From a plasmid: a stretch of 64,000 nt of DNA. How positions within the stretch are numbered: position 1 is the stretch's first letter; the number at the start of each line of letters is the position of its first letter. The translations under genes were made by a program, and so were the position numbers. The notes beneath the pieces were generated by a model that made no database searches, was not told the origin of the DNA, and saw only the letters and a list, made by a program, of their open reading frames with translations. This document shows, in pieces, positions 2,079-62,117 of this stretch. The stretch is from the sequence record NZ_CP012741.1; one strand, written 5' to 3'.

Positions 2079-5000
2079 TATCGTTCTAACTCTCTGTCGA
2101 TTTCTCTGTCCTCCCAATCACTTTCTTTCTCTTGATGTTCAAAGTTCATCTCTTGCTGAGGTGAATATTCTTTTGGCTCAAAGTGTTCAAGTGATTGGCT
2201 ATCGGTTTCTTTTTTCTCATCAAAGTTCAATGTATCTAATCCACTTTCTTGATGAGTGGAATGTGTTTCACTTAATTCAATATCGTGTACGATGTTGTCC
2301 CTCTCTAGTTTTTCAATGCACGCCTTAATGTCTTCCTTGAGATTATCATCTGACATGAATTGAATATCTCTTCCATTGAAGTTTTCGATGATTTTCTCAA
2401 TGTTATTTGGGTTTAAGTCGTGATTGCCTTGGTTTAGTACAATAATGATGTTCTGTCTCAGTTCATCGATGTTGATGTTTTGAATGTCGTTCTTGTGATT
2501 GACATTAATAATGTCAATTTGTCCTTGTGTTTGCTCTCGAATTAAAAATGAATTTTCAATCGAGGTGCTGATGATGGTCGTGTTTAAATTCTCTCCTTGG
2601 TGAAAATTTGTTAACTGTTTGGATTTGGTGCCCAGCGTTCTTGGATTAATGTCTAGCGTGTTATCTCTATTTCCTTGTGAATCTAAATAGGTTACTTCAA
2701 TGGCTTTTGTTTCACCTTGTTTGTTGTGGATGTTAGTTAACATGGCAGGGTGATAAGCTTTATCTTCGGATGAGTATACCGAAGGGTGAAATTTCACATT
2801 GTCGTTTTCAATGTTATTAATACCAAGGCTGTTTAAGTACGTCTGCGCCAAAGTGTTATTGATCGGCTGGCTTTGACTTATGTACTCTTTGGCTCTTTCT
2901 TCAAACTTAGCAATATGCTTTGGTGTGGTGCTCAGTAATTTTTCGTGTTTGCTGTTTTCCTCTAGTTTGTATTTTTCTGGCTCATTGAGCATTTTATGGG
3001 CTTCATTCATCGCCTCTTTATAACTCATGCCGTTATGGCTCATCATTAGGTTGATGAGTGAGCCTTTTTCGCCCGTTGTGTAGTCTTTAAAATAACCACG
3101 ATGCTCACCTGTTAAAGAGACTTTAATGGCGGATTTGCCGATGCCAAAGGTTAAGTAATCGCGGTCTGACTTGGATTGGTTTGGTCTGCCTAATAACTGA
3201 GTGGCAAGGCTTTCGGTGTATTTTGGTAGCTGTGTATTGATGTGCTCCCTAAATTTATTGTAGTCAAAGTCACCACTTTTATTTTGGAACCGGACGTCCT
3301 CATGCGGAAGCGCGTTTCGGTTAAAGTAGGTGGTGTCTTTGGGTGGAATTTGGTTAATGGTTTCAATGGCACTGGCTTTATGGCTTTCTTTGGATAGCCA
3401 ACTTTTGACCAATTGTGTGGTGTTATCGGTATAGAGTCGGATGTGTTGACTGGCACGGGTGACATCGATACCGGCGCGTCTTAGGTTGGTCAATGCGCCT
3501 TTGCTCTGAATGGCGGTAATGACATGGGGATAGGTGGCCCCTTGCGCCATGTCGGCGGTTCGACTGTAAGCGTAATCCCAATGCCCATCTTTAAGCTCGC
3601 TCGGGTTGATGGTAAGCGTCTCTCCTGTTTTCGTTTGCGCAATGATGCCGTCTGAGCTTGCTTGTGTGATGCGATATTCCACGTTGGCTTTAATGTCACG
3701 GCTTTTATCGGTAAAGCGTGTCACTATCTTATCGCCCGTTGAAAGTGGCTTTTCTGACACGCTAAACAGTGTCGTGAAGGTATGATCTCGATGACGAGGT
3801 AAGAAGGGCTTGCTCTTACCATTTTGATCCTGGAGCGTCACCACGCCATGCTCTGAATCTACGTGGGTAATAGTGGTGTATTCCCCAGGCTTGGTACTCA
3901 GTACCAAGCCTTTTTGGTAGGGCATCATGGTAGACAGTTCTTCCCCTGTTGCCCCGATAGAGCGCAGCCTGGTGGTGATGATGTTTTCTTTGCCTATTTC
4001 TTGGGTTTTCATTAATCCGACACGGATGTGTTCGGTGATGGTGTCACGCTCCTTGTTGGTGTACGCGATGATAAGCGTATTCTCTCGCGCCTCTGGAGTG
4101 CGCTCTAGATAATCTTTGGCCACAACAAAAGGCAGCTTTTCAGTGGCTTCTAACTGCGCTTTGCGTCTGTCTTTGTTGTTTTCATCCAGCGTAGAAATGA
4201 CATGTTGGCGGTTGCCTTGACTGTCAGGGGCTTGCTGCTGGAGTTTGTCCAGGGCGCTTTGAGGCTGCTTATCAATGGTGTTTTGCGCCGCATTCAGTAA
4301 GGGGTCGTTTTGCTGACGAATGATGTCTGTCATGTACGCGGTATCGATATCGCCTTTACTTATGGCCAGCTCAAACGGCTTACCGGCGCTAAGGGACAAT
4401 AGCTGCTCTTTATCACCTAAAAGTACCGCTTTGGACTGACTGGCATTGACCAGTTCGGTAAACTCCTTAGCTTGTTTGTTGCTGACCATCGAGCTTTCAT
4501 CAAGAAAGAACAGGGTGTGTTGATAATCGCTGGCGTCTCGATTGCCTTGCCTGATATCGGACAGCAAACTTTCCAGCGTTTGTGCTTTTACCCCTTTGCT
4601 TTCAAGCTCTGCCACGGCGGCGTGAGTGGGCGCAAGTCCAATCACGTTTTGCTCGGGCAACTTGCTGGCTTCTCTCACCAATTGGATAAGCTCAATGTTG
4701 GACTCTAGCATGGTGGACTTACCCGTGCCGGCTAAACCTTGAATGGCCACAAAGCTGTCTTGAGTGGTTGAGGTTAGCGTGATGGCGTCCTTTTGTCCGT
4801 GGGTTAAGCGAGGTTTGGTATCGAGAAAGGTTTGCACCTGCTTAGGGGTAGCAAAAGGCTGATGTCGGTCTTTGCCATCGACGATGTTTTGCAAGATGCG
4901 TTTTTCCGTCTCTAGCGCCGCTTGTGTCGTCCAGCGTGTCCCGTCGCTGTATTCCGCAGAGAGTGTGTCACTGCGTTTGGCCAGATCGATTTCAATTTGG

Positions 5001-8704: not shown

Positions 8705-10810
8705 CTAATCCACCATTTCTTCTGTGCTCATTTGGATATCTTGGGAGATAGCGGCTTCTTCCAACTCTTGCTGAGCTCGCTCTTGATAGTCGCCATCGGA
8801 TTTGAGTTTTTCCGCATCCTCGGTGGCCAGCTCTTTGACTGTATCACTTCGCTGCGCCTCTCTGATTTGGTCTGTTTCCAGCTTCATCTCTTCGGGTGTT
8901 TCAAACTGCTTGGCTTGGATTTCGGTCAATGCATTGCGATCTTCGTCATTGAGGAAAATGCCAGGTGCAACACACTCACAATAAATCGCTTCTTCATACG
9001 CTTTGGTCATCGCCGGTGATGGGGTGTAATCGCGTTTGATAAAGGCGGCGCTGACATCTCGCATCTTATCAAAGTGCAAATCCAGTTGAGTGATGAAACT
9101 GCTGCCTGGTACGCGAAGGTAGCATTGCAAATCATCCATGGCTTGAATTTCGCTACTCGATACGACAGGGCGGGTGATGGTTTGGTGGCCAATCGATACC
9201 CCATCACGCAACGTATTCGCACCGTAAGAGATGTTTTCTCTTGATACATCGACTTCTTGTTCGCCCAAATCTTTGGAGGAGATTTGCGCCATCTGCGCCG
9301 AAGGTGCGCGGAAGTAAAAGCGAGAGTTGAGCAAATCAAAAATTACATCTGCGGTGTTTTTGCCGTAGGTTTTCACCAGTTGCGCATACGACTGGAGACC
9401 AATCACATAACAGCCACCAAACTTACGTACCTCAGCAATGATGCTATCGAGTTCTGGCAGTTTATGCAGACTTGGCATTTCATCCATAATCACCCAAATC
9501 CGTCGGTCGTCATCTGGATCGAGTCCTAAGATGGCGTTAGATGCAATCGCCAGCCAAGTCGAAATCAATGGTCTCAAGGAAGCGTGTTGTTGTGCGTTAC
9601 TCGATAAGAACAAAAAACCTCGTTGTTTATCATCGAGCACCCAATCGGTGATGGAAAACGGCTGGCGTTTGAGCTTGCCGTGCTCATCTTTTTCATCCAG
9701 TCCATCCAGAAAGCGCAAACTCTTAATGTAGGTGGCCAAAACGGATTTAATCGAGATGGCGGTTTTTTTGATGTCTTTAGAGACAAGAGATGCCGATTCT
9801 GTACCTTGTAAAAAGTTACCGAGGGTTTCGAGCTCTGAGGTGAGGATCAGACTAAGCAATCTTGCGGTCGAGCAAGGCTTATTGTCTTGGCTCATGCGAT
9901 ACGCGGTACTAGAGAAAATGGTACGAGCGGAATCTACCCAGAACGGATCACCTTCACCGTGCTGTGGAATAAGGGCATTGGCAATGTTCTCAAAGTCAGG
10001 GGCTTCCTTGGCATCGCACCACACATCCCAATTGGCGCAGCGCTCATCAAATGGGTTGAGTAAGATATCTTGGCTAGGGTCAAAAAACTTACTGGTGAAG
10101 GTGCAGCCCTTATCATAAACAATCGCTTTGTCGCCTCGTTTGCGTATCCAGCGCAGTAGTTTGCGCAGCATGACAGATTTACCTGCTCCGGTCGTGCCAT
10201 CGATGAGTATGTGCTGAACTTCAAATTCATGCTTAAACAAGGCAAGGCCATCGACTTTAAAATCAGAAATCTTTCCGTTGCCTACGCCTTGTTTTTTCAG
10301 CTTTTTGGCACGCTGTTTTAAATCTTGAGTGAGTCTTTTGGGCTCTGCGTATTGAAATCCCCGAACGTGAAGATCTTCACTTTGCTTTTCCCCCTGGCGT
10401 TTGAAAAAGGTCATTGCGCCCATCAAGATAGCGAAAGCAATCGCGAGGGCAATTAAGAAATTGATTTGGGCTTGGCGTATGACGTTGTCGTAAAGGGTAA
10501 TGAGCTGTGTGTTTTCGAGCTGTGAGGCAAGGGTGCCAACGTAGCGCTTACCATTCCAGAAGGTCGTTACTTCACTGTTTAAGTCATGGCCAAGGTTGGC
10601 ATAGAGTTGGTTGCGCCAGTAGTAGAATACAGACCAAAAGGCATTGTCAGGGGCGCGCAACCAGGTGAGAAATCCGGTTAACGCAATCACCGCCCAAATA
10701 GCAGCGTAAACTAAGGTATTGTTGACTTGAAAGAACATTCGGATGGAGTGAAAGGTGATTTGTCCACCACGGGTAAAATGATTGCCTTTGGAGCGTGAAG
10801 GTCTAGACAT
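8705..10810 (-). CDS. traD: TraD type IV coupling protein (F-like)
   Basis: 701 aa with N-terminal TM segments and Walker A GTTGAGKS. Acidic, Q/E-rich C-terminal tail as in F TraD. Confidence 0.9.
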   Translation of the reverse strand: MSRPSRSKGNHFTRGGQITFHSIRMFFQVNNTLVYAAIWAVIALTGFLTWLRAPDNAFWSVFYYWRNQLYANLGHDLNSEVTTFWNGKRYVGTLASQLENTQLITLYDNVIRQAQINFLIALAIAFAILMGAMTFFKRQGEKQSEDLHVRGFQYAEPKRLTQDLKQRAKKLKKQGVGNGKISDFKVDGLALFKHEFEVQHILIDGTTGAGKSVMLRKLLRWIRKRGDKAIVYDKGCTFTSKFFDPSQDILLNPFDERCANWDVWCDAKEAPDFENIANALIPQHGEGDPFWVDSARTIFSSTAYRMSQDNKPCSTARLLSLILTSELETLGNFLQGTESASLVSKDIKKTAISIKSVLATYIKSLRFLDGLDEKDEHGKLKRQPFSITDWVLDDKQRGFLFLSSNAQQHASLRPLISTWLAIASNAILGLDPDDDRRIWVIMDEMPSLHKLPELDSIIAEVRKFGGCYVIGLQSYAQLVKTYGKNTADVIFDLLNSRFYFRAPSAQMAQISSKDLGEQEVDVSRENISYGANTLRDGVSIGHQTITRPVVSSSEIQAMDDLQCYLRVPGSSFITQLDLHFDKMRDVSAAFIKRDYTPSPAMTKAYEEAIYCECVAPGIFLNDEDRNALTEIQAKQFETPEEMKLETDQIREAQRSDTVKELATEDAEKLKSDGDYQERAQQELEEAAISQDIQMSTEEMVD

Positions 10811-10883
10811 GGTGATTTCCTATAGTGTTAAAGTAATACTGAATGATTATTGGTTGATGATATTGCTGTGCAGGGGGGCTGAT

Positions 10884-11423
10884 ATGAAAACAAAATTCAC
10901 ACATGCAGAAGTAGCCAAGCTGCCTTTTGCTCGTCGTGTTCTTTATATGGGAAGCAATATCAAGAAGGAAAAACTGATTGATGCAGAAGGTAAATATTGG
11001 CATATCACCGATGTGTATCTCCCCGACGTGGTGGGAAGTCTAGATCCGCGACATGCTGGCAGGACGTGGTTGGCTTTATTTCCTTGCACTGATGAGCCTT
11101 ACGGTCTCGAACGCGGTCAGCGTTATGCTCAGTACCTTCACAACAACCATGATTACTATTTTTCTGAAGAAGAAAAACGAAACTGGTTTCTTTGTAATAT
11201 TGATGGAGAACTTTATATTGATGACGGGCATCACCGGACAGTAATTGGTCGTGTATTTTTGGAGGCAAATGGTTTTGAGCCTGTCATTAAAGGCGTCCTC
11301 ATTGCTTATTACACTGGAGGGTTAATCCATCGTATTCGTATTTTCCCGCGCCGCTTCAAACACCGATTGATAAGTCGTTTCAATGTCTTCAAGCGAAAGA
11401 TAGGTAGAAGGACCATTTCTTGA
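10884..11423 (+). CDS. small ParB/sulfiredoxin-fold (DGHHR motif) protein
   Basis: Internal ATG at 10884 (MKTKFTHAEV...); the track ORF starts at a TTG inside the traD start region. Contains IDDGHHRTVIG, matching the ParB-N/DGQHR nuclease-like motif. Its 3' end overlaps the convergent gene at 11322-11912 by about 100 nt. Confidence 0.45.
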   Translation: MKTKFTHAEVAKLPFARRVLYMGSNIKKEKLIDAEGKYWHITDVYLPDVVGSLDPRHAGRTWLALFPCTDEPYGLERGQRYAQYLHNNHDYYFSEEEKRNWFLCNIDGELYIDDGHHRTVIGRVFLEANGFEPVIKGVLIAYYTGGLIHRIRIFPRRFKHRLISRFNVFKRKIGRRTIS

Positions 11424-11912
11424 TCCCCATCGAGTTCTTGGTAGTGCTTTCCATATCGTGTCATCATCGATGCCGAGTTTTCGGTAGTGCTCAATTAATG
11501 CCACGTCGATGCACTCTCCTTTTTTATGACACTGGCTGCACCATGAAGTATCAGCAACCAAATAACCGTAGTGCTTGAATAACCCTGGTGCGCAGTTATC
11601 ACACACCTGACAAGGAAAGGCTTGTTGCTCAGGATGGTTCATCGCAGAGAAAAACGAAGCCGGACCAAGATTAAAACAAGTCATTGGCGATAAGTGTGTT
11701 TTCAATAGTCGAGTGGCTTCTATACGGGAAAGTTTGAGTGGTTTGATGAGTGTTTTTAACTGATACGTTTTACTTTGGTCTGCAAGTAAAGACAAACGAA
11801 TGTTTTGCTTATGGCATTGAGTTAAAAAGGTATGGAGTTTGTCTTCTTGGGTTGCAGAGTCTTGAAATAAGAGTCTTTTAATTGCAGATGCCGCTTTGAG
11901 GATGGCGTTCAT
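11322..11912 (-). CDS. C4 zinc-finger protein with TraR/DksA-like CxxC-x17-CxxC spacing
   Basis: 196 aa, C-terminal half PCQVCDNCAPGLFKHYGYLVADTSWCSQCHKKGEC. The N-terminal half is helical and charged. Family assignment rests on Cys spacing only. Confidence 0.45.
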   Translation of the reverse strand: MNAILKAASAIKRLLFQDSATQEDKLHTFLTQCHKQNIRLSLLADQSKTYQLKTLIKPLKLSRIEATRLLKTHLSPMTCFNLGPASFFSAMNHPEQQAFPCQVCDNCAPGLFKHYGYLVADTSWCSQCHKKGECIDVALIEHYRKLGIDDDTIWKALPRTRWGSRNGPSTYLSLEDIETTYQSVFEAARENTNTMD

Positions 11913-12255
11913 ATCACTTCCTTTGAATAAGAGTTGCAGGGGCGAACGGTTGTATTACGTTGTAAAGGCTCAATCAGGGAAACAAAGAGTCCCGTTTTTT
12001 TGAGCCGTTATTTTGATGAGTACACTTGCGTTAAATCCCTCTTTGAGAGGTTTTTGAGGTAGAAAAATATCGCTTTGTTACCGTGTTACAGTTACTGGTG
12101 TTAAAGGTGAAGATTAAGTAAGATGAGGGAGTTGCTTGGCGCTCATCGGAACAGGGAACGTTTTCTTTAGGGAAAAGTCTTGAGTTGCGAGAGTCTGAAA
12201 TGCGCTTTCGCTGCCAAGCAGCCATGACGATTAATCATGAATAGACGCTCTTATA

Positions 12256-12290
12256 ACCAGTACTAGGCTCTCTCGCGTGCTGGTTTTTTT
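12256..12290 (+). terminator. rho-independent terminator insulating the hok locus from upstream transcription
   Basis: CCAGTAC-13-nt loop-GTGCTGG (one G-U wobble) followed by TTTTTTT. Confidence 0.5.
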
Positions 12291-12435
12291 GCCTTAAATC
12301 TAGAGTGGGAACGAAAAAAGCCTTAGAATCGCCGTGGGTGCTTTTGGTGTTCGACCAAAAGTAGTTCGAAAGATTTGCTGGCGGTAGAAAATCAAAAACC
12401 CCGAATGAACTGTAAATTCAAACGAGGTTTTAGAA

Positions 12436-12540
12436 ATGTTCCTAAGCAAAACAGATCTTAGCCTCTATCTCGATTTATTTCAATGCAAAATTGAAGGAGG
12501 CAAGTTATGCCAAAAAGTACGATTGCATTTGCAAGCCTAG
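12436..12540 (+). CDS. mok: mok-like leader ORF overlapping the hok start
   Basis: 34-codon ORF (MFLSKTDLSLYLDLFQCKIEGGKLCQKVRLHLQA) ending just inside hok in another frame. This is the architecture of hok/sok loci, where mok translation is coupled to hok. Confidence 0.35.
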   Translation: MFLSKTDLSLYLDLFQCKIEGGKLCQKVRLHLQA

Positions 12541-12659
12541 TGGTGGTGAGTCTCACCCTGCTTTGTTCTCTCTGGATAGTTCGTCACTCGCTTTGCGATG
12601 TGCGCTACTTAGATGAGAGAGTGGACTTTCAGGTAACCCTTGCCTACGAATCAAGATAG
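12507..12659 (+). CDS. hok: Hok/Gef-family membrane toxin (type I toxin-antitoxin); below the 60-aa ORF-track cutoff
   Basis: 50 aa: MPKSTIAFASLVVVSLTLLCSLWIVRHSLCDVRYLDERVDFQVTLAYESR. Aligns with Hok/Gef (KSLCEIRY...EVAAF.AYES). Strong SD GAAGGAGG 7 nt upstream. Confidence 0.85.
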   Translation: MPKSTIAFASLVVVSLTLLCSLWIVRHSLCDVRYLDERVDFQVTLAYESR

Positions 12660-12667
12660 TTGCTAGC

Positions 12668-12699
12668 CAGGGAGAGGGTCACAGGAAGCCCTCTCCCTG
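12668..12699 (+). other. 3' stem-loop of the hok mRNA (11-bp perfect stem)
   Basis: CAGGGAGAGGG-tcacaggaag-CCCTCTCCCTG starts 9 nt after the hok stop. No U-run follows, consistent with the stabilising/fold-back 3' hairpin of hok-family mRNAs. Confidence 0.5.
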
Positions 12700-12701
12700 A
12701 A

Positions 12702-12989
12702 CTAGTATTGCAAGGGCACATCATAAGCACCCATATCATCTGATCCCATTTCCAATTCAAGCGACACGACGTGATTGAGCGGTAAACCAGTGACGGTCGC
12801 CACTAATTCAATCGGCATCCATTCATCGAGCATCCACTTTGCAACGTCGGTCTGAGACTGCGTTGTACGAATGAATCGACCCTCAATAAGAGCCAAACTG
12901 TCGTGGTCGAGTGTGCCTTTGAGTTTGTCTTGCCAGTCTGTTTTCATTTTCTCACCACCGAGCTTGTCATTCGATATTGGACTCAACAA
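12702..12989 (-). CDS. hypothetical protein
   Basis: 95-aa ORF, likely starting at the internal MKTDWQD. No recognisable domain. Confidence 0.3.
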   Translation of the reverse strand: MLSPISNDKLGGEKMKTDWQDKLKGTLDHDSLALIEGRFIRTTQSQTDVAKWMLDEWMPIELVATVTGLPLNHVVSLELEMGSDDMGAYDVPLQY

Positions 12990-12995
12990 AAGCCG

Positions 12996-13598
12996 TTAAA
13001 ACAAGTGAATACCGCCAGAAGAAGAGGTCGGGTAATTCACATTCGAAACCTTTCCTTCCGTATCGAACGTGACTGTCATCGTATTCCAGCGGTTCGTCCA
13101 ATAAACCCAAGTTTGGGTTGCCATTGGTTTGGGTGTTCTAAAGGCCGGTGGGTAACCCATAGCCTGTATCACGGCCGCCTTTGTCATACCGATTTGTGCC
13201 GTTCCACTGCTGATACCTTGTTTGTCAATGTCGGATAGTGATGCAGATAGTGGTTCACACGACGTGCCAAAGTATTTTTGAATGTTTTGAGCAAAGTCAG
13301 GAGTACGTTTATGCCAGTAATAGTGATAGGTTTGGCCTGTCTCTTTGATGGAGAACTCCATGACTTTTTTGGTGGCAGAGTGTATATCGACTTCGGTGCA
13401 ACGAGGAATGAAACCGCCTTGCTGGTAGTTTAGGGAGAAGAGTTTGGCGCGTGTTGCATCTGGGTGCAAATTTACAAGGGTATACACGGGCTTGTTGGTG
13501 TCCACTAAATTATTCTGTTGTGCATCTTGTATGTCTATCGTTGAGGCGCAGCCAGCTAACGTAAGGACAACGCCGAGTGCGGTCAATTTTAGTTTCAT
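12996..13598 (-). CDS. lipoprotein (lipobox LTLAGC); candidate exclusion-type outer-membrane lipoprotein
   Basis: MKLKLTALGVVLTLAGCAST signal and lipobox. Sits where traS/traT lie in F-like operons, directly after traG. Confidence 0.6.
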   Translation of the reverse strand: MKLKLTALGVVLTLAGCASTIDIQDAQQNNLVDTNKPVYTLVNLHPDATRAKLFSLNYQQGGFIPRCTEVDIHSATKKVMEFSIKETGQTYHYYWHKRTPDFAQNIQKYFGTSCEPLSASLSDIDKQGISSGTAQIGMTKAAVIQAMGYPPAFRTPKPMATQTWVYWTNRWNTMTVTFDTEGKVSNVNYPTSSSGGIHLF

Positions 13599-13732
13599 GT
13601 CAGTATTCCTTTGTGTTATCGCAATTAAAGTCCGTTTTCATTAAGACGGACATTTTTCATCAATTCCTTTTCTCTTGTTTTTACTTTTAGGTCAATGAAA
13701 ATACGCTATCTAGTCCACGCCATGTGCTGAGG

Positions 13733-14269
13733 TTAATATTTCCAGCCATTAAATTGCAGCGACTTTGGAATGGGGCTGTAGCAAGGGTATTCGGTTTGAA
13801 GACCATATGCGATGATATAATCGATAGATACGCTGAAAGCACCGGCAAAATTTGCTCGTCTGAATTTTTGAGGGTCATTCTTGGCGGTTTTTTCGAGCAC
13901 TTTCCAGATAAGGTCTACAAAAAACTCAGGGTGACGGTCTGGATCAAGCGTCATGGTGTCACGCATGCAGAACCAAAGTCCTCCCCCTGTTTCTTTTTGG
14001 TTATAGGCGTTGTCAAAATAAGCGGTTTGTAATCCTAACAAGTAACCTTGTAGGCGCATCGATTCAACCGTATCCGTCTCATCAATGTGCTGCAAAAAGT
14101 AAGGCAGTTTGGTGACATTGGATAGGTCTTGAGAATAGGGTCTTTTAGTTATTACAGCCTGTTCGTACTGCTCATGTATCTCGCTCAGCAGTTGAGTGAG
14201 CTCAGGAGAATGCGTTTGCGCTTGTGCACTTGCGCAGGTAAGCAGCAGCAAAGGTAGGACTTTTTTCAT
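13733..14269 (-). CDS. secreted/periplasmic hypothetical protein
   Basis: Cleavable signal MKKVLPLLLLTCASAQA. Good SD (AAAAGGAGCGTT) upstream of the ATG at 14269. Confidence 0.55.
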   Translation of the reverse strand: MKKVLPLLLLTCASAQAQTHSPELTQLLSEIHEQYEQAVITKRPYSQDLSNVTKLPYFLQHIDETDTVESMRLQGYLLGLQTAYFDNAYNQKETGGGLWFCMRDTMTLDPDRHPEFFVDLIWKVLEKTAKNDPQKFRRANFAGAFSVSIDYIIAYGLQTEYPCYSPIPKSLQFNGWKY

Positions 14270-14351
14270 AATAACGCTCCTTTTAGATACCTGATCATAA
14301 TACCAGTATTTTAAGGGTGCATAAAGTCCTTTTTATGCACCATGATCAATA

Positions 14352-17165
14352 TTATTGGTTTGGATTTTGGGTGTATCTGGGTGCCGCAGGGTAGGATTGG
14401 TCGGAGGTGACGTATTCCGTCCTTTCGGGTTTTGTTACCTCTGCTTCTACCTGTGACTTGATGGTCAGCGCAATGATGGGTTCTGGTTTGGCGATCGACT
14501 GCTGAGCGTCGCTTTGCTGCTGCCTTGCGTTATCCGTGACCCCGTCGAAGCGATCTTGGTTAAACAGCCCGCCGGTGCCTTTATTGTGCATCACAGCGGT
14601 GCGGGTGGCGTCTACTGCACCTTGTGTTTTATCCCATTCATTCTCCATGGTTTTACTTTGCTCTGGGGTGAGCTGAGGCGGTGTTGTTGGTGTTGTGGTT
14701 TGATAGTCTTGGTTCATCTTGGCCACGACGCGTGCGCTGTCACCATCGAGTCCTGCCATGGTGGCAAAGGCTTCGGTGCGAGTAAATTCTTGCCAATGCT
14801 TCTTCGCATCCGCAATGTCTTCTGGTTGGTAAGCGGTCATGAGGCGTTGAACTTGTTGTTGCTTGAGCCCTGCATTTTCCTCCAAGTAGTTTTGGAATGC
14901 GCCATCGGCTTTAGCAGTAAAGCTGCCGCCAACTGATTCCAAACGCGTTTGGGTGTTGGAGAGTGCGTTCAAATCCGATTGGCTTTGCATCACGCTGGCA
15001 CCCAAGGACTTAGTGTTGCTGGCGTTAATCGCAAAGTCATGCGCAAACTGCTCAACTGACGTGCGCGTGTCTTTGTTATCCACTTGCGTGCCGGCAGTGG
15101 TGACCGCATTCGCCCCCTCAGTGTATTGCTTGGTCGCTTGCTCAAGCTGCTGCTTCTGCTCGCTGCTCATGTTGCTGTAAGCGGTGCGTTCTTCGTCTGA
15201 CCATTTCACCCCAGCGTTAGCGCTGGCGCTAAATGGAAGAATGCTTTTTCCTGAACCTACGCCCACATCCACGCCAGCATAAGCGCTTTGCAAGTAAGCT
15301 TGCGATTGGTCTTTCGTCCAACCCGTTTGTTTGCTGACGTTGTCAATGGCGCTTTGCATGTTGCTCATACCTTGGCTGACTTGGGTATTAAAGCCCGTGG
15401 TGCTGCCTTCGCCATAGTTTAGGTTTTTACCTACGCTGTCATGCCAACGATCACTCAATGCCGCGCCAGCTTGAATGGTTTGGCCAAGTTGAGTGCTGGT
15501 TTGCGCTAGGTTTTGCTCTGTTTGACTGCGAGCATTGGCCACACTTTCTTGCAGCATAGCGGAAGTGTTAGTGGATATATTACCTCGGCTGACCATTTGC
15601 GTACTGTCGTAAGTGGTGCGTCCATCGCCGTGTTGTGTGGTCACCGAACCGTCTTGGTTTTGGGTGTAGCTATGTCCTTGGTTAGTGAGTGTGTTGGTAT
15701 CAAACTTATTGGCATGGGTGTTGTTCATGCTGTGGTTATCAATTTGCATACTGCCAAAGTCCAGATTACCGGTTGATGCTGCCGCGCTCGCTCTGGCATT
15801 GGTGGAATTAATCATGCTTGATAACTGGTAGTTCATGCTCGACATGACCGATTGCCCGCCTTTGAGTATGCCACCGGCAATTAACGGTACGCCTATCATC
15901 AAGATGCCCGTCATCCAGGCAAAGCGGCTGTGTAGTTCATCGGCTGCATTGGCATTGGAGAGAACCAGCCCACCAAATTTACCAGAGACATCGGTGGAGA
16001 GAGATTCTAGCCCCCACAGTTGGAAGCCATTGATGATGGCAAAGAGCGCTGGCCACGTCGCCAGAAACGCAAACGTACCAACGTAGTTTTTCAATACCAT
16101 TAGGGTTAAGCCTGGAATGACCGCCGCGCCAGCAACAAAAAAGCCCAAACAAGCAAAGAGCATAAACAGCATAGTATGGAGCATGGGCAAGTATTCCCTT
16201 GCCATTAAGCCAAGAGAGGCCCACATCGAGGTGGTTTGCAGTTTGTTGGTGGTATAGGCGTAATTGAGTGCAGCTTGGGTGGGGTTAAGGCTATCTATGT
16301 TGTAGCGAAGCTCATTCATCAACATGTTTTGCTTAATCGTGTTGGAAGCGCTGGTGCTGATGGAAAAGAATTTGTTGTAACTGCGTTGGAGCGATTGAAC
16401 AATTTGGGGCTTGTAGCGATTGGCCTCCTTACCGAGTAAATGATGCGCTAACAAGGTGACGTTTTCGTTCGACGCAGCATCAAAGCGCTGTTTTACTATG
16501 GGGTACGCTTCTTCACACAATTTATAGCTGATTTTGCCGCCACCCTCATCAAGATAAAGCGCGCGCAGCGGGCTTTGTTTGATGCCATCGAGAAAGGTAA
16601 AAATATTCGGGGCGGCAAAGAGTTCATCCCACGTGTATTTGTGGTTAATTCTCACATCGCCAATCATGCAGTTTTGAAAATAATCACTCCACAGCTTTTT
16701 AAGTCCTATTTCGCGTACGCTTGATTGCCTTGAGAGCTGATAGAGCTCAGAGCCAAACAACATGCCTGTACGCCCATAACGCTCATCGTCTGAGGTGGTG
16801 AAAATGGCTTCGACCCCCTCTGTCATCCCCACCATAATAGAAGAGAAAAAGTAAGTCGGTACCGCGACAAGGTAGGGTACGTTATCGACTTTGTACGCTT
16901 TCCCTGGTTGGGTTTTGTCAATGATGAGCATGTCGGCTTTCATGTTGATAAGAAACAAGGGCACAGCAAAGAAAACCACCATCCATTTGATGAGGTCTTT
17001 GGGGTTACGAGAGAGCATGAAGATAAACAAGCTGGTGATAAGACCTAGCATCATGCACATCTGTAAGTAATCGCCAAAGGTATTGGTTTTAAAAAAGGTG
17101 GCCAGCGCGTTAAAGGCTTTATTGACCACCTCGCCAGAGGTGTAGGTGTAATACTCAAGTATCAT
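14352..17165 (-). CDS. traG: TraG (F-type), mating-pair stabilisation and pilus assembly
   Basis: 937 aa with a polytopic N-terminal half and a Q/N/T-rich periplasmic C-terminal half. Immediately follows traH. Confidence 0.9.
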   Translation of the reverse strand: MILEYYTYTSGEVVNKAFNALATFFKTNTFGDYLQMCMMLGLITSLFIFMLSRNPKDLIKWMVVFFAVPLFLINMKADMLIIDKTQPGKAYKVDNVPYLVAVPTYFFSSIMVGMTEGVEAIFTTSDDERYGRTGMLFGSELYQLSRQSSVREIGLKKLWSDYFQNCMIGDVRINHKYTWDELFAAPNIFTFLDGIKQSPLRALYLDEGGGKISYKLCEEAYPIVKQRFDAASNENVTLLAHHLLGKEANRYKPQIVQSLQRSYNKFFSISTSASNTIKQNMLMNELRYNIDSLNPTQAALNYAYTTNKLQTTSMWASLGLMAREYLPMLHTMLFMLFACLGFFVAGAAVIPGLTLMVLKNYVGTFAFLATWPALFAIINGFQLWGLESLSTDVSGKFGGLVLSNANAADELHSRFAWMTGILMIGVPLIAGGILKGGQSVMSSMNYQLSSMINSTNARASAAASTGNLDFGSMQIDNHSMNNTHANKFDTNTLTNQGHSYTQNQDGSVTTQHGDGRTTYDSTQMVSRGNISTNTSAMLQESVANARSQTEQNLAQTSTQLGQTIQAGAALSDRWHDSVGKNLNYGEGSTTGFNTQVSQGMSNMQSAIDNVSKQTGWTKDQSQAYLQSAYAGVDVGVGSGKSILPFSASANAGVKWSDEERTAYSNMSSEQKQQLEQATKQYTEGANAVTTAGTQVDNKDTRTSVEQFAHDFAINASNTKSLGASVMQSQSDLNALSNTQTRLESVGGSFTAKADGAFQNYLEENAGLKQQQVQRLMTAYQPEDIADAKKHWQEFTRTEAFATMAGLDGDSARVVAKMNQDYQTTTPTTPPQLTPEQSKTMENEWDKTQGAVDATRTAVMHNKGTGGLFNQDRFDGVTDNARQQQSDAQQSIAKPEPIIALTIKSQVEAEVTKPERTEYVTSDQSYPAAPRYTQNPNQ

Positions 17166-61431: not shown

Positions 61432-62013
61432 TTAATTCGGGTGCACGACGATATGCGCTTGGTGTGAACTGGCATTCCACTCCTTCATTTCAGCAACGAA
61501 AAGTCCGTGCTGATTTATTGAATCGATAAGTTCTGGCGCGCGTTCCAACTGAATCAGCATCGAAAGCGGGGCAACTTGGTTGTGCTCATGGTCAAAACCA
61601 TGCTCGATTTGCTCTTCAAGCATATAGAGGATCCCTGTCTCGGCTTCGCTGCCTTCCTCAAACAAACGGGATTCGATCCCTTCCACATCATAGAGGTATA
61701 CCAGTAGGTTATAGAGCTTTTCGGCTCCGGCGAGTTTTGTGCGATTGGCTTGCGAATTTAAATCGTACAATCTCATCTCTAGATTCCCTCCTGGTCTTCT
61801 GGCTACATTGAGCATGAGCTTAATATCTTTCTTGATATTCGATAACGCTTTGTTATTCAGTTTCGGCTTTAGGTATCGGATCAAAATGTCGTTACGAGTC
61901 GAAACTGGTACGTGACGAGTGGTTTCTGATACTTTGCTAAGTAAGTGAAGCAAGGCGTGAGTCACTAGATTATGCAGGTTGTGGTAATACTCAAAATCTC
62001 GTTTGATTTGCAT
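61432..62013 (-). CDS. hypothetical protein with a truncated paralog at 47797-47990
   Basis: 193 aa with no recognised motif. Its 3' terminal 190 bp are about 80% identical at DNA level to an unannotated fragment next to IS21. Confidence 0.5.
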   Translation of the reverse strand: MQIKRDFEYYHNLHNLVTHALLHLLSKVSETTRHVPVSTRNDILIRYLKPKLNNKALSNIKKDIKLMLNVARRPGGNLEMRLYDLNSQANRTKLAGAEKLYNLLVYLYDVEGIESRLFEEGSEAETGILYMLEEQIEHGFDHEHNQVAPLSMLIQLERAPELIDSINQHGLFVAEMKEWNASSHQAHIVVHPN

Positions 62014-62077
62014 CGCGGTTTGGGTTTGCTCTACATGATATGAAATACGGGCGTTCGTTGGTCTGCATCATAACACG

Positions 62078-62117
62078 ACTGAATCAGGAAGAGGGCAAAC
62101 CCTCTTCCTGATTCAGT
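62078..62117. promoter_or_regulatory. 18-bp perfect-stem hairpin or palindrome (4-nt loop) 65 bp upstream of the 61432-62013 gene
   Basis: ACTGAATCAGGAAGAGGG-caaa-CCCTCTTCCTGATTCAGT, with no U-run on either strand. Confidence 0.6.

Follow-up and report, generated by a model that had tools for sequence, protein, structure and literature searches.

The window analysed here is a stretch of 64,000 nucleotides from a plasmid (sequence record NZ_CP012741.1; one strand, 5' to 3'), and the locus in question lies around positions 12256-12699, between the tra genes traD and traG. An initial annotation, made from the letters alone, had described it as an unannotated hok/mok-type I toxin locus inside the tra operon. 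The plus strand encodes a Hok toxin of 50 amino acids, a mok-like leader frame overlapping its start and the structured mRNA for both, while a Sok antisense RNA is predicted on the minus strand. The locus is very probably a canonical hok/mok/sok type I toxin-antitoxin module, acting in post-segregational killing, on an F-type (MOBF/MPF_F) conjugative plasmid of Vibrio vulnificus. This reading is carried by the family membership of peptide and leader, by RNA helices with covariation, by a conserved mok frame and by promoter and terminator signals for Sok. The features of the module are:

12301..12329, plus strand: inferred hok promoter with a weak -35 (TAGAGT, 12301-12306), a 17-nucleotide spacer and a -10 (TAGAAT, 12324-12329)
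12336..12738, plus strand: predicted full-length hok mRNA of about 400 nucleotides, from Rfam, folding and nhmmer; 3' end approximate
12336..12350, plus strand: tac element at the mRNA 5' end, pairing with 12718-12732 (inverted repeat I2, 16 nucleotides, 88% complementary)
12341..12361, plus strand: 5' metastable hairpin, CTTTTGGT with ACCAAAAG, overlapping tac (perfect 8-base-pair inverted repeat I22)
12388..12447, minus strand: predicted Sok antisense RNA of about 60 nucleotides, start ~12447, end ~12388, from folding, K-12 analogy and conservation
12392..12434, plus strand: hairpin joining the anti-Shine-Dalgarno (anti-SD) element (ucb-like CCCCG, 12399-12403) to the mok Shine-Dalgarno (SD) region (CGAGG, 12422-12426) (inverted repeat I3)
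12424..12465, plus strand: Sok-target (sokT) hairpin with the loop CCUAAGCAA at 12441-12449, alternative to the 12392-12434 hairpin (Rfam consensus hairpin)
12436..12540, plus strand: mok-like leader frame of 34 codons, overlapping the hok start by 34 nucleotides (list of open reading frames)
12455..12483, minus strand: predicted Sok promoter, -35 TTGAAA (12483 to 12478), 17-nucleotide spacer, -10 TAAGAT (12460 to 12455) (consensus scan)
12459..12475, plus strand: 5' arm of a long-range helix that pairs with 12649-12665 across the stop codon and encloses the hok coding domain (inverted repeat I4, 17 nucleotides, 82% complementary)
12475..12494, plus strand: 20-nucleotide insertion TTATTTCAATGCAAAATTGA between sokT and the hok SD
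12496-12500, plus strand: hok SD, GGAGG, 6 nucleotides before the ATG
12498-12518 with 12625-12645, plus strand: hok-SD helix (inverted repeat I1)
12507..12659, plus strand: hok toxin gene, 50 amino acids, MPKSTIAFASLVVVSLTLLCSLWIVRHSLCDVRYLDERVDFQVTLAYESR (Pfam, NCBIfam, BLASTP, RefSeq)
12668..12699, plus strand: hairpin after the stop codon, perfect 11-base-pair stem of 12668-12678 with 12689-12699 (inverted repeat I7)
12718..12732, plus strand: fold-back inhibitory (fbi) element with the invariant core AGC(A/T)CCC, which covaries with the 5' GGG(T/A)GCT

The open reading frame (ORF) of hok has the strong SD that the initial annotation had ascribed to it, and its assignment to the Hok/Gef toxins held up in a profile search, as the peptide matched the Pfam family PF01848 (HOK_GEF) significantly and above the family threshold, with 24.7 bits against a gathering score of 22 (E 1.8e-5). 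In BLASTP it aligned with HokC of E. coli K-12 without gaps over 50 amino acids (E 8e-7), with LC(D/E)V and AYES in common. Residues 6-24 (IAFASLVVVSLTLLCSLWI) are hydrophobic and the motifs SLC30D and AY47ES are present; an L-C motif was found in 16/16 Hok homologs and (A/V)YE in 15 of them, and conserved Hok positions were reported before (R1 C31 and R1 Y48; bioRxiv 10.1101/2025.08.07.668861). In its length of about 50 amino acids, the hydrophobic helix near its N-terminus, the conserved Cys and the (A)YE towards its C-terminus, the peptide shows the profile of a Hok protein. Its toxicity is predicted by analogy; 42 of 45 diverse Hok homologs were shown to be toxic when tested, this sequence not being shown among them (bioRxiv 10.1101/2025.08.07.668861).

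The description of the locus as unannotated applies only under an ORF cutoff of 60 amino acids. RefSeq names the ORF "Hok/Gef family protein" (WP_081280404.1) in NZ_CP044208.1, and the same annotation is found in the sister plasmids p345-67 (V. harveyi) and pC4602-1 (V. vulnificus), in both at the traD-traG position. These sisters have 92-94% DNA identity and differ in one residue of Hok, R33H. Thus, a real addiction module, which is already picked up by standard pipelines (PGAP, Rfam), is lost from view when short ORFs are cut off. The module is genuine, intact and well conserved, and it is an already annotated part of a catalogued Vibrionaceae plasmid lineage.

The mRNA leader was recognized by the Rfam model RF01794 ("sok"), which matched 12336-12500 on the plus strand, i.e., the hok strand, over its full length (model positions 1-157 of 157) with 63.9 bits against a gathering score of 59 (E 7e-12). 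The annotated hokC/mokC/sokC locus of E. coli K-12 (NC_000913.3, 16300-17500) served as a control for the strand of this match. There, the match of RF01794 is to the hokC/mokC strand; it begins at the mRNA 5' end and reaches the hok ATG, and inside it, on the opposite strand, lies the annotated sokC non-coding RNA. It follows that the "sok" model represents the hok mRNA leader in sense orientation and that the real Sok is antisense within 12336-12500. Rfam sok matches from automated annotation were described on V. harveyi plasmids (PMC12088062). Automated calls of a 'sok antitoxin' non-coding RNA hence mark the sense hok leader, with the actual Sok antisense inside the match.

For comparison, 16 homologous loci with annotated or intact Hok ORF (the window and 15 fetched loci) from plasmids of Vibrio, Aliivibrio, Photobacterium and Shewanella were aligned, from the conserved GGG(T/A)GCT 5' end to just beyond the conserved AGC(A/T)CCC. 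The conserved 5' end GGGTGC is position 1 of the Rfam model, and the -10 TAGAAT, located 6 nucleotides upstream of it, is kept in 12/16 loci; the consensus scanner gave no call for the predicted hok promoter at 12301-12329. With the family profile, nhmmer spans 12336-12737.

The 34-codon mok-like frame that had been proposed to overlap the hok start was recovered at 12436..12540. Its ATG (12436) is invariant in 16/16 loci and lies 9 nucleotides downstream of an invariant ACGAGG. In all 16 loci the frame runs without a stop at least as far as the hok SD, compared with 3/16 and 8/16 for the other two frames. The mok peptide itself shows little conservation, and the loci differ in the frame of mok relative to hok, which is expected if the act of translation and not the product is selected. 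Translational coupling of mok to hok is presumed by analogy. In the Shewanella baltica plasmid pS19502 (850-1056 of the fetched locus) the mok-like ATG is in frame with hok with no stop between them, and this leader ORF would give an N-terminally extended Mok-Hok fusion of 68 amino acids.

The proposal of a hok-mRNA-like architecture is supported by the Rfam score above the gathering score and by helices that covary in the 16 loci. Partners were slid as a control for the pair counts and 500 shuffles were used for the covariation score. The full-length mRNA has a minimum free energy (MFE) of -141.4 kcal/mol (z = -6.16 vs. shuffles), and both the single-sequence MFE fold and RNAalifold join the mRNA 5' end to the 3' end. 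Five parts of the closed form were counted, i.e., tac/fbi, the anti-SD/mok-SD hairpin, the long-range helix, the hok-SD helix and the post-stop hairpin. In these, 86.8% of cells are paired, compared with 33-46% with partners slid, and 29 pairs change on both sides, compared with 6-16; the covariation score was reached by 0/500 shuffles. For the alternative helices (5' metastable and sokT hairpins) 91% of cells are paired, compared with 37-53% with partners slid. The alignment thereby shows that the tested R1-type helices are conserved with covariation across plasmids of Vibrionaceae and Shewanella.

The closure of the mRNA by tac and fbi was found by RNAalifold as a pairing of columns 1-8 with 415-422; in this helix (helix 1) 94.9% of cells are paired, and both sides have changed in 3 pairs. 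Compensatory changes turn U-A into A-U in 3 sequences and into C-G in 5, and in the pVPWZ1 lineage GGGUGC/GCACCC is replaced by GGGAGC/GCUCCC. The metastable hairpin (12341-12348 with 12354-12361) has 93.8% of cells paired, and 4 of its 8 pairs change on both sides. In the anti-SD/mok-SD hairpin (helix 3) four pairs (C-G, C-G, C-G and G-C) do not vary and are flanked by pairs that covary; the complement of this hairpin is the Sok terminator hairpin. The alternative sokT hairpin, which has the loop CCUAAACAA in the Rfam consensus, has a local fold of -11.3 kcal/mol, and 86-97% of its cells are paired, with compensatory changes present. In the long-range helix of 12459-12475 with 12649-12665 (helix 6), 4/6 pairs change on both sides. 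The hok-SD helix (helices 8-11) is 72-98% paired, and in the full-length MFE structure the hok SD is paired with CUUGCCU of the 3' coding region. In the post-stop hairpin (helix 12) 92.4% of cells are paired and 8 of the 11 pairs change on both sides.

The initial annotation had the mRNA bracketed by an upstream terminator and this 3' stem-loop. Both structures are present, i.e., an upstream hairpin with a run of seven T and the perfect 11-base-pair 3' stem, but neither bounds the mRNA. The fbi element lies 19-33 nucleotides beyond the post-stop hairpin, and because fbi at 12718-12732 is needed, the mRNA must run about 35 nucleotides past 12699, which makes the stem-loop internal. The post-stop hairpin was considered as a bidirectional or canonical terminator and rejected, as there is no U tract on either strand; by analogy, it likely forms the 3' end of the processed, active mRNA. 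The upstream structure is an intrinsic-terminator-like hairpin on the plus strand at 12255..12290 (arms 12255-12263/12277-12285, T run 12284-12290). It is conserved alongside the cassette in pC4602-1 and p345-67, and it has a counterpart in the relative pHLE-202008, which carries no hok, so that it belongs to the plasmid backbone and lies outside the hok module. Hence, the functional unit is ~12301-12738, and the first 40 nucleotides of 12256-12699 are the backbone terminator.

A Sok-like RNA, which the initial annotation had not located, can be placed on the minus strand. A promoter (TTGAAA-17-TAAGAT) was called at 12483 to 12455, within the 12430-12510 interval suggested for such a search, and it was the sole sigma-70-like site called by the scanner in 11800-13100. 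The -10, TA(A/G/C)(G/T)AT, is conserved in 16/16 loci. The predicted RNA of about 60 nucleotides (~12447 to ~12388) has a single-stranded 5' tail, GCUUAGGAACAU, complementary to the sokT loop and the mok AUG, and its 3' part forms a terminator hairpin followed by a U run at ~12398-12388. Its predicted fold has an MFE of -18.1 kcal/mol (z = -4.47), and its placement relative to the Rfam model agrees with that of the annotated sokC in the K-12 control. In the alignment of 16 loci, the Sok terminator hairpin and the bases complementary to the mok AUG are conserved and the 5' tail is variable; this tail would set specificity between co-resident loci. On these signals, i.e., an own promoter, a terminator and complementarity to the mok initiation region, the locus has what a Sok gene requires, and expression of Sok is predicted.

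The Sok promoter has been altered by the 20-nucleotide insertion at 12475-12494, which among the 16 loci is present only in the window, p345-67 and pC4602-1. It includes a small inverted repeat and makes mok longer. In the 13 loci without insertion the Sok -35 is TTGCCT (TTGCAC in pVSAL840), the complement of the hok SD, with the same 17-nucleotide spacing. The insertion shifts this ancestral TTGCCT 20 nucleotides away and brings TTGAAA at exactly 17 nucleotides.

A scheme for the action of the module can be taken from the R1 model (PMC9841398), from which transcription, 3' processing, refolding, translational coupling, RNase III cleavage, toxicity and plasmid stabilisation would follow by analogy. 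A stable mRNA of about 400 nucleotides would begin at 12336, and in the nascent mRNA the tac element would be held by the 5' hairpin 12341-12361. In the full-length mRNA, the 5' end (12336-12350) would be paired with fbi (12718-12732), the mok SD would be held by the anti-SD at 12399-12403 and the hok SD by the 3' coding region, so that this closed form would be untranslatable and would not bind Sok. Slow 3' trimming to the post-stop hairpin (12668-12699) would take off fbi, and refolding of the leader would then make the mok start and the sokT hairpin accessible. As long as a cell carries the plasmid, the unstable Sok of about 60 nucleotides (12447 to 12388, minus strand) would pair with sokT and the mok start region, block translation of mok and hence the coupled translation of hok, and the duplex would be degraded. 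In plasmid-free cells Sok would decay first, Mok and Hok would be translated and the membrane peptide of 50 amino acids would kill the cell.

The likeness to R1 hok/mok/sok (parB) extends to the toxin of about 50 amino acids, whose N-terminal part forms a transmembrane helix and in which the Cys and AYE motifs are conserved, to the overlapping mok leader ORF with a GAGG SD, to an antisense Sok of about 60 nucleotides transcribed from inside mok, and to the tac/fbi closure, metastable 5' hairpin, anti-SD/mok-SD hairpin and post-stop hairpin (PMC9841398). In contrast to R1, the host is a Vibrio, sequence identity is very low, mok is short (34 codons), 20 nucleotides are inserted between sokT and the hok SD, the tac/ucb complementarity appears weaker and a hok terminator was not found. 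E. coli K-12 hokC/mokC/sokC (gef) likewise belongs to the same Rfam family on the hok strand, has Sok antisense inside and encodes a toxin of 50 amino acids that aligns ungapped; however, it is chromosomal, scores 118 bits vs. 64 on the Rfam model and has a longer mok of 69 codons.

Several points weigh against assigning the locus to canonical hok/mok/sok. The NCBIfam Hok subfamily model NF007279 matched the peptide over its full length (E 3.5e-8) with 33.2 bits, which is under the curated cutoff of 73, and identity to E. coli HokC is only 26%. NF007279 was built on enterobacterial Hok. Partition-function folding of the full-length and the 3'-truncated mRNA of 5 sequences, which covered the mok SD, the mok AUG, the hok SD and the sokT loop, gave an unpaired probability of 0.25 for the mok SD in both forms, so that its release is not predicted; the accessibility of the mok AUG rose from 0.74 to 0.94 in the same comparison. 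By eye, the tac/ucb pairing for the open form is weak with about 4 base pairs (GGGU/ACCC), and no tac/ucb covariation was seen in the GGGAGC lineage. An intrinsic terminator that would end the hok mRNA downstream of fbi was not found.

In a blastn search with 12300-12760, 146 plasmid records were found (Vibrio 123, Photobacterium 12, Aliivibrio 6, Shewanella 5). In nine of these the match spans 80% or more of the query, with an identity of 92-94% in eight, and most others match the leader only. Members of the Vibrio hok family are found in many other, unrelated contexts. It was reported that Hok occurs in 10-18% of Vibrionaceae plasmids, forms six clusters restricted to Vibrionaceae and is enriched on large conjugative plasmids (bioRxiv 10.1101/2025.08.07.668861), and ORF7 of the acute hepatopancreatic necrosis disease (AHPND) plasmid pVA1 was described as hokC/pndA (PMC7409025). 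The hok loci of Vibrionaceae plasmids ('pndA'/ORF7 of pVA1/pVPA3-1; pC4602-1) belong to the same RNA family and are alignable over the whole mRNA. The identity of the Hok protein is 98% to pC4602-1 and p345-67 (1 residue) and 44-51% to pVPWZ1 and pVPA3-1. The pVA1-type loci differ in that they are located by DUF2913 or antirestriction genes or near a traF signal peptidase, in that they do not carry the 20-nucleotide insertion and in having TTGCCT as Sok -35.

Variants of the locus were observed among these plasmids. In V. parahaemolyticus pVPSD2016-4 (~978-1130 of the fetched locus) the leader is intact and the hok ORF diverges right after the SLC motif, with a stop 9 codons on; an IS3-family transposase gene begins about 60 nucleotides downstream of the truncated hok, which looks like toxin inactivation mediated by an insertion sequence (IS). 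In the window, a remnant of a second, pVA1-type hok/sok locus lies at 62044-62111 on the minus strand (nhmmer E 3.5e-6), directly upstream of ORF 61432..62013 (minus strand; MQIKRDFEYY...). It keeps only the post-stop hairpin (CAGGAAGAGGG/CCCTCTTCCTG) and a degenerate fbi (CCAACGAACGCCCG), and its 3' flank matches the start of the DUF2913-family gene downstream of hok in pVPA3-1, pHLD and pVPCZ2014-2. With 5 diverse Hok peptides as queries, tblastn gave no second Hok ORF in the window, and a search with the mRNA profile (nhmmer) gave only this 3' remnant. For V. harveyi QT520 p2 (3208-3360 of the fetched locus) and for NZ_CP150468.1 the PLSDB gene table lacks an intact Hok ORF, the product of which is identical to that of p345-67; hok counts in Vibrio plasmids that are based on annotation are therefore underestimates.

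The plasmid itself could be assigned by the region 11000-14500 of the window, which is 100% identical over 3.5 kb to the V. vulnificus plasmid pVv180806 (NZ_CP044208.1), a conjugative plasmid of 65.6 kb of type MOBF/MPF_F. This match is split in two pieces, as the origin of the record is at window position 12697. The record is flagged linear and its origin (window ~12697) falls inside the hok hairpin after the stop codon, so that the 3' end of the hok mRNA and fbi are split between the two record ends. The tra genes traI, traD and traG are encoded on the minus strand, and hok lies between traD and traG on the plus strand, opposite to both. The neighbouring genes are:

8705..10810, minus strand: traD, flanking the hok locus
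12702..12989, minus strand: convergent ORF whose 3' end contains the fbi element of the hok mRNA
12996..13598, minus strand: ORF of 200 amino acids, predicted lipoprotein (lipobox LAGC; weakly BamE/OsmE-like C-terminus)
13733..14269, minus strand: ORF of 178 amino acids with a signal peptide
14352..17165, minus strand: traG, flanking the hok locus

For the neighbouring ORFs between traD and traG no Pfam or NCBIfam match above threshold was obtained. The ORFs 12996..13598 and 13733..14269 sit where plasmid F has traT and traS; they may be analogues with an exclusion function, and an identity as TraS/TraT could not be assigned. The traG-traD interval differs among the sister plasmids, in which the lipoprotein gene 12996..13598 is exchanged for other genes, and in F (NC_002483.1) it contains the accessory genes traS and traT. 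It is, on sequence comparison, a variable accessory region in this plasmid family. In the hok-less pHLE-202008, homology to the window covers 10500-12080 and 13722-14588; the cassette is absent and the tra genes are intact, which argues that the hok cassette is dispensable for transfer.

The place between traG and traD had been called unusual for a killing module in an F-like plasmid. The position was correctly given, but its strangeness is reduced by the variability of this interval and by F itself, where the type II toxin-antitoxin genes vapBC sit between traD and traI on the opposite strand (NC_002483.1, 91966-92591). This is a precedent for addiction modules inside the distal tra region. 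Both modules lie opposite to the tra genes in the distal part of an F-type transfer region, whereas vapBC uses a protein antitoxin and the Vibrio plasmid has a type I module in the traS/traT interval. The single hok-family gene listed for the F stretch 55000-99159 is the flm Hok-family toxin, which lies in the leading region outside the tra operon.

The readings that compete with post-segregational killing by an intact module differ in how much of it they question. That the Hok-like motif is fortuitous in a chance ORF could be argued from the shortness of the peptide and from a Pfam score merely 2.7 bits over threshold, but this is refuted by the independent Rfam match on the leader and by the covariation of the closed-form and alternative helices over 16 loci, and homologous DNA is found in 146 plasmid records; its probability is negligible. 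A decaying, non-functional relic is highly improbable. Chromosomal hok loci are often inactive (bioRxiv 10.1101/2025.08.07.668861), the remnant 62044-62111 and an IS-disrupted copy exist among these plasmids and the insertion displaced the ancestral Sok -35. However, the same insertion provides a new -35 at exactly 17 nucleotides, no defect is seen in the ORF, either SD, the mok frame, any of the helices or the -10 and terminator of Sok, and R33H is the single Hok change in sister plasmids at 92-94% DNA identity. An intact module could also serve mainly in plasmid competition or exclusion, in early establishment after transfer or in abortive-infection phage defence. Such roles were proposed for hok/Sok (bioRxiv 10.1101/2025.08.07.668861), and it is common for Vibrio plasmids to have several hok lineages, whose Sok 5' tails diverge; the second-locus remnant in the window would fit a turnover driven by competition. 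Sequence does not separate these roles, though, post-segregational killing is mediated by each of the plasmid-borne hok loci investigated to date (R1, F, R483) (bioRxiv 10.1101/2025.08.07.668861) and the Vibrio plasmid locus lies outside the leading region, and a main role of this kind is regarded as rather improbable.

A coupling to conjugation is suggested by the position of hok on the opposite strand between traG and traD, an arrangement that recurs in at least 9 plasmids. Read-through of the tra operon on the minus strand, from traG toward traD, could yield a long RNA antisense to hok, by which hok would be silenced in cells active in transfer, or transcription of hok could collide with this read-through and dampen traD/traI. 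Consensus scans of 13100-10700 found no minus-strand terminator-like site and no minus-strand promoter except that of Sok, and the post-stop hairpin has no U tract on either strand. The placement of hok may thus be functional, as the cassette lies opposite to the distal tra operon, and neither a minus-strand terminator nor a promoter for traD could be detected in the interval from the cassette to traD. Such consensus scans carry little weight, however, and the sister plasmid without the cassette keeps its tra genes intact, which together make coupling unlikely; moreover, the same hok family is found in unrelated contexts and F tolerates an opposite-strand toxin-antitoxin pair between traD and traI with no known coupling. 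The stronger form, in which the placement is functional, tra read-through would act as a giant Sok that silences hok in transfer-competent donors, hok/Sok transcription would modulate traD/traI and addiction would be linked to conjugation, is more doubtful still. Post-segregational killing by a canonical hok/mok/sok module is thus the preferred reading. The analysis provides a base-level map of its promoters, tac/fbi, mok, sokT and Sok, which could help in curing or engineering these conjugative plasmids of V. vulnificus and V. harveyi or in the design of anti-Sok oligonucleotides.

Upstream of hok lies a gene-free stretch of 420 base pairs that is conserved in the sister plasmids. The region 11940-12335 was considered as a separate small RNA or as part of the module and was rejected as part of the module, as its fold is not unusual (z = -0.79) and the terminator is also present in the hok-less relative; the stretch is without an Rfam match, and a permissive Rfam scan of 11940-12335 gave, beyond the sok match, two sub-threshold chance matches only. 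It carries three plus-strand terminator-like hairpins with T runs, at 11977-12003, 12038-12055 and 12255-12290, with no evident plus-strand gene for them to end.

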